A stretch of 64,000 nucleotides of DNA, from positions 5,947 through 69,946 of the IMG/VR virus record IMGVR_UViG_3300047160_000980; one strand, written 5' to 3'. Made by a program: the position numbers and the translations under genes. Positions 35,611 to 36,008 of the stretch are shown in pieces. This DNA is from a virus. Its lineage: Duplodnaviria > Caudoviricetes. Numbering within the stretch: the first letter of the stretch is position 1; each line of letters opens with the position of its first letter. The notes beneath the pieces were generated by a model. That model saw nothing but the letters and a program-made list of their open reading frames with translations. It was not told the DNA's origin and ran no database searches.

Positions 35611-35919
35611 TTACTCTTTCCAGAGTCGGTAATTCGAAAGAATCTTTTTCTTTTCTTCCGACAAAGGTTCTGTTGTGATGGAAGAATGACCGATGTTATG
35701 GTCAGGCTCAAAGAATGTGTGATGCTCGATTCCATGAACCGAAAGCCATGACGAGATTTTTAGAATGTCGGATTCGTCTTTTGCTTCTAGCAAAATCAAA
35801 TTCGACCCCTACCCAGGTTTGTAAAATTCGGCACCGGCTTCGTGTGCCGAATGACAAGCCTGAACTATTTGAACTGCTAATGGCAAATCTCTACGAATAA
35901 ACGTGTATGTATACAGCAT
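35611..35919 (-). CDS. Pth2-like peptidyl-tRNA hydrolase with an in-frame TAG at codon 37 (read-through gene or pseudogene)
   Basis: AGGAGA RBS, then MLYTYTFIRRDLPLAVQIVQACHSAHEAGAEFYKPG*GSNLILLEAKDE...GIEHHTFFEPDHNIGHSSITTEP; Q-x-x-H and EPD motifs; TAG at 35809-35811. Confidence 0.75.
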
Positions 35920-36008
35920 GTGTCTCTCCTTTGTAATAGAATTGTAATCTTGTTCAATTCCAAAAGGAGGACTTTTGTTTCGAACCTATTGCATGATGCT
36001 TCCTTGTT

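Follow-up and report, generated by a model that had tools for sequence, protein, structure and literature searches.

Leader-peptide attenuators such as ErmCL/ermC, the cat and cmlA leaders and SecM/secA use a short upstream open reading frame (uORF), led by a Shine-Dalgarno (SD) sequence and ending in a conserved C-terminal peptide, that lies directly upstream of the gene it controls; the 3' end of the leader pairs with the SD and AUG of that gene, so that a ribosome held at the leader end would open them. We describe a locus of similar build in a 64,000-nucleotide (nt) stretch of viral DNA (Duplodnaviria; Caudoviricetes; IMG/VR record IMGVR_UViG_3300047160_000980, positions 5,947 to 69,946; hereafter the window), in which a gene for an amber-suppressor tRNA, tRNA(CUA), is followed on the minus strand by a leader beginning ATG-CAA-TAG and by a gene for a protein resembling the peptidyl-tRNA hydrolase Pth2. 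The likeness in pairing and opening is predicted in silico, and the differences are that the leaders here have just 9-14 codons, that the window leader, being stop-less, continues into the regulated ORF, and that the proposed input is the decoding of UAG at codon 3-6 by a suppressor tRNA, not a drug, a metabolite or secretion. ATG-CAA-TAG probably represents the first three codons of an amber-interrupted leader ORF, a translational attenuator that makes the Pth2-like protein upon amber suppression. The locus thus looks like leader-peptide attenuation with a new kind of input, and apparently is an unpublished natural read-through sensor: full-text literature searches returned nothing on a leader gated by an amber or on a module of Pth2 and suppressor tRNA, and the main phage-recoding paper mentions neither a hydrolase nor a leader.

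Positions below are those of the window, and L-numbers denote other loci or contigs, L021 being the rest of the window's own genome contig (Table 1). A first-pass annotation of the sequence had placed AAGGA-6 nt-ATG CAA TAG between the suppressor tRNA and the Pth2-like gene, with two ambers in a 128-codon frame, and we confirmed this arrangement on the minus strand. Past its TAG the leader frame reads VRNKSPPFGIEQDYNSITKERH and stays open into the Pth2-like ATG, 75 nt downstream of the leader ATG, giving a single frame of 128 codons with two ambers up to the TAA at 35611-35613. Contigs from three soil-metagenome runs, together spanning both ambers, reproduce the sequence with 0 differences, and the description of the window locus is therefore correct; the source sample may be among these runs. 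A promoter scan found no sigma-70-like promoter between 35400 and 36500, the leader matches no Rfam family, and the weak Rfam matches at 35580-35674 stem from the terminator.

We compared 27 loci, comprising 23 distinct loci with close homologues (window included) from IMG/VR, JGI metagenomes and assemblies and 4 sampled distant family members. The amber element is present in 24 of them (21/23 close, 3/4 distant): SD-ATG-(1-4 codons)-TAG precedes homologous genes or is fused to them, in agreement with the earlier judgement that the arrangement is unlikely to be chance. At 17 of the 23 close loci, including the window, the Pth2 ATG is preceded, at a distance of about 75-92 nt, by an SD-led ORF that takes a common form of 1-4 sense codons, TAG, 5-7 codons and a stop, 9-14 codons in total; the SD stands 5-8 nt ahead of the leader start in 20 loci besides the window. 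The peptides of the relatives (asterisks marking stop codons) include MK*VLNNSPP*, MM*VFNKSPP*, MRKQ*VRNNSPP*, MRR*VLNNSPP*, MK*VLNRSPP* and ML*VHKQSP*, and further ML*ITKPP*, MTR*INEPP*, (L)KH*IYRHPP*, MKM*ISCSQPP* and ML*MTNDSS*; the window leader is MQ*VRNKSPP, followed by F instead of a stop. The expectation that M-x-*-x-RNKSPP would be kept upstream of phage Pth2 homologues was thus borne out, and the leader is real. Scanning IMG/VR with the pattern TAG-GTN-NNN-AAY-ARN-TCN-CCN-CCN-TAA returned the L002 contig only.

Four more distant loci of the close set carry the amber inside the Pth2 ORF, at codon 3-6, with the sole SD ahead of it and no SD-led start after the amber (L014, MQ*VNYVYSWIR...; L017, ML*ITEKTYCYIFIR...; L019, MSGFT*VTNKQYMYVFVR...; L029, ML*IKEKNYVYCFIR...). 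Among the distant homologues, three of four have an amber leader (ML*NYRAPPL*, MQ*GTRQFNIRPP* and MK*ITKHPP*) ahead of an operon made up of a 138-200-amino-acid (aa) gene without known function and then the Pth2-like gene, and the fourth, L035, shows no recognisable leader in the region examined. Elsewhere in the family the leader is a separate uORF, in frame 0, 1 or 2 relative to Pth2, whose stop follows closely on the final conserved residues, in most cases with PP or SP immediately before it; the fusion of leader and Pth2-like gene in frame noted in the first-pass annotation holds for the window and fails as a family trait, and the single 128-codon frame is therefore a window-specific, not a conserved, feature. 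The tree does not resolve well enough for independent origins of the leader types, or of the amber at codon 37, to be counted.

The choice of stop codon in these leaders is strongly skewed. Within the 150 nt upstream of the 23 homologues, the first stop of SD-led short ORFs is TAG in 20 cases, TAA in 0 and TGA in 3, the three TGA cases being out-of-frame artefacts; L031, cut by a contig end, is the 21st TAG-type locus in this count. By plain trinucleotide count, TAA outnumbers TAG 2.2-fold in the same regions. The base after the leader TAG is a purine in all 24 leaders (21 close and 3 distant), a context that favours amber suppression in E. coli.

Two variant leaders stand out. That of L024 (888-923, MKM*ISCSQPP*) uses TAG both as the internal amber and as the terminal stop after Pro-Pro. 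At L034 (417-530) the leader opens with ATG CAA TAG, the same three codons as in the window, 5 nt past the 3' end of tRNA(CUA) and with no recognisable SD; its start may lie near a 5' end created by tRNA processing and be used in a leaderless-like manner.

Codon usage past the amber points to the leader's peptide as the object of selection. Among eight leaders of the V-x-N-x-S-P-P type, pairwise comparison of the codons at the five fixed positions (V, N, S, P and P) counts 84 synonymous and 0 non-synonymous differences, and all 34 non-synonymous differences sit at the two variable positions. Serine is encoded by AGT in the window and by TCG, TCA or TCC in relatives, and proline by CCT, CCG or CCA. 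This pattern points to selection for the peptide and not for the RNA sequence, and since the peptide can be made only if the TAG is read through, the codon comparison indicates that the leader TAG is decoded.

This selection also bears on a second precedent, the bar minigenes of phage lambda, which share with the window a strong SD, an ORF of 2-3 codons and a functional tie to peptidyl-tRNA hydrolase. Were the leader to end at its UAG in the same way, it would be a 2-codon ORF serving for fMet-Gln-tRNA drop-off, for titration of release factor 1 (RF1) or for loading ribosomes for re-initiation, with no functional read-through. Short peptidyl-tRNAs are indeed prone to drop-off, the SD is strong and the ORF very short, and the genome holds a second SD-ATG-ATA-TTC-TAG mini-ORF elsewhere. 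By contrast with bar, in which a specific peptidyl-tRNA drops off at a true stop, the last sense codon here varies (CAA, AAG, TTG, ATG, CGC, CAC or ACG), 1 to 4 sense codons precede the TAG, and the frame past the stop is conserved and, by the codon comparison, translated, being under purifying selection as a peptide and ending at a fixed place relative to the hairpin described below. Moreover, a minigene could do just as well with TAA or TGA, yet neither ever occurs, and some 60-85 nt separate the leader TAG from the Pth2 AUG, too long a distance for simple re-initiation. We therefore consider a minigene quite improbable, and the bar-type peptidyl-tRNA drop-off proposed in the first-pass annotation finds no support, given the unconserved codon before the TAG, the varying codon count and the purifying selection beyond it.

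The 3' end of the leader is predicted to control access to the Pth2 start. The minimum-energy folds of all uORF-type loci (11/11 in the first set and 4/4 added later) are long-range hairpins, each with a 5' arm that begins at the last Pro codon or the stop of the leader and a 3' arm that holds the Pth2 SD and usually the AUG as well. The pairing partners of the SD and AUG mostly lie about -8 to +13 nt from the leader stop (11/11 first loci); in the window, AAAGGAG is the direct pairing partner of the Pro-Pro codons (CTCCTTT). The window hairpin has a free energy of -17.8 kcal/mol (z = -3.41, as stable in 1/200 shuffles) and ranked second in significance among the first 11 hairpins tested (z = -3.2 in that run), with z-scores across loci ranging from -1.1 to -3.95. 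An RNAalifold consensus of seven relatives contains 17 pairs, with compensatory double changes at 5. Across 16 loci the mean probability of being unpaired, P(unpaired), from SD to AUG is 0.29, versus 0.45 in 31 SD-led control genes of this genome (one-sided Mann-Whitney p = 0.0009). These folds predict that the leader's 3' end masks the Pth2 SD and AUG.

We then simulated this masking with ribosome footprints on the leader. With the amber in the A site the SD was still paired, and with the ribosome at the PP-stop P(unpaired) rose from 0.06-0.55 to 0.47-0.70 (11/11 loci). The first hairpin pair lies 11-20 nt past the leader TAG. The helicase reach of the ribosome is commonly given as about +11-13 nt from the P site, which places the hairpin beyond a ribosome terminating at the TAG.

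The leader endings resemble those of known arrest peptides, and this raises the question of whether the TAG matters at all. Most relatives end ...S-P-P-stop, x-P-P-stop or S-P-stop, as do Pro-stop termination-arrest uORFs (TnaC, NSP-stop and NAP-stop), and 13 of the 16 other uORF-type relatives have the stop directly after proline; the window has TTT (Phe) after PP, and its frame continues. NSP-stop and NAP-stop peptides stall with the stop codon in the A site and need a C-terminal Pro plus an Asn a few residues upstream (PMC10987492). The leaders described here differ from them in register (N-x-S-P-P versus N-S-P), in having no N-terminal localisation signal and in being phage-borne with an internal amber. 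A Pro-Pro ending of a small regulatory uORF is also found in the RAPP/RGPP arrest peptides (ApcA, ApdA, ApdP and Streptomyces uORFs; PMC10987492, PMC12992588), and two distant relatives sampled here carry ...RAPPL-stop (L033 only) and ...IRPP-stop. The window and the 16 nearest uORF-type leaders, however, have S, K, E, H or Q before PP, or no proline, and none has R-[AG]-P-P: the residues at the site are K-S-P-P in the window and N-S-P-P, T-K-P-P, N-E-P-P, R-H-P-P, S-Q-P-P, Q-S-P or D-S-S in near relatives.

On such an account the leader would be an ordinary arrest or coupling leader in which the TAG is incidental: the operon would be translated only when the suppressor is present, UAG would be plain sense, and the leader would respond to another signal at Pro-Pro-stop, for instance free tRNA-Pro, elongation factor P, release-factor capacity or Pth activity. 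The resemblance of the Pro-Pro-stop and S-P-stop ends to NSP-stop and NAP-stop (PMC10987492) speaks for it, the hairpin geometry suits it equally well, and feedback by peptidyl-tRNA(Pro) is conceivable, the controlled gene having a Pth fold. What makes this account unlikely is the amber itself, which is kept at codon 3-6 in 24 leaders with all flanking codons different, yet is a stop elsewhere and absent in frame from other long ORFs. An amber inside the enzyme ORF, as in the fused types and at codon 37, makes no sense if incidental, and three leaders have no proline. We thus favour amber-gated attenuation over an arrest leader with an incidental TAG.

The gene downstream was examined for its family and fold. 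Its 26 homologues (101-121 aa, 53-65% identity) align across the TAG at codon 37, and all 26 start at the position of the Pth2 ATG, none at the leader start. Pfam PF01981 (PTH2) matches the window protein at E = 0.091 (13.4 bits, under the 23-bit cut-off) and is matched by 14/27 homologues (best E = 2e-5), and the family profile, searched against PDB sequences, matches a peptidyl-tRNA hydrolase at E = 0.029. An AlphaFold (AF2) model of the protein (predicted local distance difference test, pLDDT, 90; predicted template-modelling score, pTM, 0.83) has 1rlk, 3erj, 2zv3, 1xty, 1wn2 and 1q7s as its top Foldseek matches, with a probability of 1.0 and template-modelling (TM) scores of 0.70-0.81; the best structural matches are archaeal Pth2 and human Bit1. 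The modelled protein has the Pth2 alpha/beta fold, and hydrolase action on peptidyl-tRNA is its putative role. The family comprises 1659 cluster representatives at E <= 0.001, and a scan of GTDB genomes found zero homologues, so far placing the family, as seen here, only in viral and metagenomic DNA.

The internal amber could in principle mark a gene in decay: a dying pseudogene in which codon 37 has suffered a nonsense mutation and which has lost its leader stop and its partner gene, behind a functionless ATG-CAA-TAG. Three traits of the window are compatible with this, namely the long branch of its protein (0.92), the missing stop after PP and the missing downstream partner gene of about 80 aa found in relatives. 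Against decay, none of the 27 residues invariant in the family has been lost on either side of the TAG, the hairpin was among the two most significant of the first 11 tested (z = -3.2; -3.4 on retest), the identical sequence occurs in contigs of other runs, TAG recurs in the same column in L001/L005 and L013, and amber-fused N-termini occur in four other lineages. Decay is consequently very hard to credit; the Pth2-like gene is not a pseudogene, and its codon-37 amber must be read. Residues of the homologues in this column vary (H, Q, R, N, E, D, K, I and S), and for that reason the homologues do not reveal which amino acid is inserted at the amber.

The ~80-aa partner gene overlaps (ATGA) the 3' end of the Pth2-like gene in L002 (3309-3572), L001, L022, L025, L027, L030 and L031, with the sequence ..PVIFHYNKKHNED..PPWILKVKGET.YVNHV..GFSTKETPDN.HTKG.., and has no Pfam or PHROGs match. 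The window's 70-kb contig holds no homologue of it, and the unit is closed by a terminator instead. The window unit is thus a reduced operon, with the leader directly before the Pth2-like gene, no partner gene and a terminator of its own.

The gene for the decoding tRNA is linked to these units. In the window, the Pth2-like gene has a tRNA(CUA) gene no more than about 1 kb away, as it does in L002, L003 (two copies), L004, L006-L012, L019/20, L022, L024, L025, L029, L034 and L036; the window (with 4 nt to the SD), L022, L029 and L034 have it right in front of the leader. The Thr(GGU)-tRNA(CUA) pair of the window is also present in L010/L011; the L001 contig (64.5 kb, about 40% complete) has no tRNA at all. 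The suppressor tRNAs across loci are of more than one type. The 17-nt anticodon stem-loop of the window tRNA(CUA) and that of the phage tRNA-Trp(CCA) (genome contig 131-204) differ at a single base, the middle one of the anticodon (C35 in the Trp tRNA, U in the suppressor), and the whole-molecule identity of tRNA(CUA) is low to any paralogue and indecisive (51/74 to Lys(CUU), 50/74 to Trp(CCA)); the anticodon arm alone points to Trp as its possible identity. This tRNA has two oddities, a D-loop without GG and a T-loop of TTTAAGT in which C56 is replaced. Among the other loci, L003 carries two different tRNA(CUA) genes in tandem (1976-2132) upstream of its leader-Pth2 unit. L002 has an ORF resembling GIY-YIG/NUMOD3 homing endonucleases (2098-2796) between tRNA(CUA) and leader, and its 1-kb tRNA-leader spacing exists because this ORF was inserted.

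Recoded phages are the obvious comparison for a phage suppressor tRNA. Code 15 phages (Borges et al., bioRxiv 10.1101/2021.08.26.457843; Peters et al., PMC9523058) likewise combine a phage tRNA(CUA) with in-frame TAG, and expression is proposed to hinge on a decoding switch. Recoded phages have in-frame stops in 26-71% of genes, whereas here one small locus only is affected and the amber sits in a regulatory leader, not throughout late genes. In the window's genome contig (window plus L021, 70 kb, with 23 tRNA genes), long ORFs are intact under table 11 and fill the minus strand, and TAG is the stop of 14/84 crude ORFs, including genes of 858, 550 and 397 aa. A scan for adjacent in-frame segments split by TAG found the Pth2 locus only, plus one case that we rejected. 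The phage is not recoded and uses the standard code, with TAG normally a stop, which makes its tRNA(CUA) an 'orphan' suppressor. Most of the TAG-ended ORFs have a second in-frame stop 4-15 codons further on.

The rejected case was a DnaB-like helicase as a second amber-interrupted gene. On the minus strand, a TAG at 47260-47262 ends a 159-aa ORF (47260-47739), in frame and one codon before the ATG of the DnaB-like gene (45853-47256). Amber read-through there would fuse the two to 628 aa; the 467-aa product is already a full-size DnaB, the 159-aa upstream ORF has no DnaB domain, and these are probably two separate genes.

We propose the following order of events. Without suppression, RF1 would terminate translation at codon 3 and the ribosome would depart more than 10 nt ahead of the hairpin, leaving it shut and Pth2 off. 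With the phage tRNA(CUA), encoded directly upstream and probably on the same transcript, UAG would be decoded; the ribosome would then translate V-x-N-x-S-P-P, slow at Pro-Pro (with a stop directly after it in most relatives) and melt the 5' arm of the hairpin, freeing the Pth2 start site. In the window, with no stop after PP, a read-through ribosome would continue in frame over the SD and AUG and yield a 25-residue N-extension and a 127-residue isoform, and the UAG at codon 37 would act as a second suppression-dependent gate. As a net result, Pth2-like protein would appear only when, and in proportion as, amber suppression works. While we infer the direction of the switch, it is supported by the fused-type relatives and the codon-37 amber, which give the same logic by another route. 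An earlier proposal, that suppression either delivers ribosomes across the Pth2 ribosome-binding site or produces an N-extended isoform, fits the peptide selection, the SD-masking hairpin and the fused-type relatives.

Several observations weigh against this attenuator. With TAG ending 14/84 ORFs, strong suppression would be costly to the phage. L016 has no amber at all and L013 has the codon-37 amber only. The loci are related, and the counts thus overstate their independence and the p value of 0.0009 for masking is generous; the predicted masking is itself weak in some loci (P(unpaired) of 0.55 in L001, 0.54 in L027 and 0.44 in L022). Three leaders end Ser-Ser-stop without proline, so stalling at Pro-Pro would not be universal, and in the window, which lacks the stop after PP, any pause would be an elongation pause at S-P-P-F. 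Concerning the enzyme, the canonical N-terminal Gly-Lys motif of Pth2 falls in a 2-residue gap of the sole sequence alignment to a solved Pth2.

A rationale for coupling the two genes is that read-through at phage and host TAG stops should create stalled ribosomes and peptidyl-tRNAs, and PTH2 of large phages has been linked to ribosome rescue (PMC7824862). On this basis, tRNA(CUA), leader and Pth2 may form a self-contained sensor of genetic-code state in a standard-code phage, its output rising steeply with suppressor activity and dosing a Pth2-fold enzyme that clears or edits tRNA-linked products of read-through; we judge this wider proposal evenly balanced. Many standard-code phages carry suppressor tRNAs without a known target, and the conserved leader and enzyme found here, readable only with the suppressor, are a candidate for such a target. 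If the model holds, these 'orphan' suppressor tRNAs would gain a dedicated natural target, and nonsense suppression itself would be the input of a natural switch, a principle so far known from synthetic biology alone, for example in suppressor-tRNA feed-forward circuits (PMC7969014). Such a switch would further connect phage tRNA islands with ribosome rescue and tRNA recycling, supply a compact read-through reporter and offer a way for in-frame stops to gain function before whole-genome recoding, which might be a first step to stop-codon recoding.

Table 1. Positions of the elements of the tRNA-leader-Pth2 unit and its surroundings in the window.
Feature	Position	Strand	Remarks
tRNA-Thr(GGU)	36088..36162	minus	directly upstream of suppressor tRNA; ARAGORN; Rfam tRNA 61.6 bits
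tRNA(CUA), amber suppressor, CCA encoded	36009..36082	minus	ARAGORN; Rfam tRNA 57.4 bits, gathering 29
Leader Shine-Dalgarno AAGGA	36001..36005	minus	begins 4 nt past tRNA(CUA) 3' end; 6 nt to leader ATG
Leader ATG (35992-35994), CAA (35989-35991), amber 1 TAG (35986-35988, next base G)	35986..35994	minus	
Post-amber leader codons GTT CGA AAC AAA AGT CCT CCT (V-R-N-K-S-P-P)	35965..35985	minus	Pro-Pro at 35965-35970; next codon TTT, no stop
Masking hairpin, 5' arm, holding Pro-Pro codons; CTCCTTT is anti-SD	35955..35972	minus	predicted fold
Masking hairpin, 3' arm, holding Pth2-like Shine-Dalgarno AAAGGAGAG (35924-35932)	35922..35944	minus	predicted fold
Pth2-like ORF, 102 codons + TAA (35611-35613), ATG 35917-35919	35611..35919	minus	
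Amber 2, codon 37 of Pth2-like ORF	35809..35811	minus	predicted loop between helix 14-32 and strand 39-46
Intrinsic terminator AATCCCGC-TTAG-GCGGGATT then T7	35583..35607	minus	read directly; stem reported on + strand by program; ends tRNA-leader-Pth2 unit

The second SD-led mini-ORF of this genome lies in its other tRNA cluster, on the minus strand of L021 (3281-3292), and reads AAGGAG-5 nt-ATG ATA TTC TAG. It sits 17 nt before a very basic 61-aa ORF (L021 3078-3263) that has no Pfam or PHROGs match and whose AGGAG directly follows the TAG. Read-through of this mini-ORF would cross the start of the 61-aa ORF in another frame.

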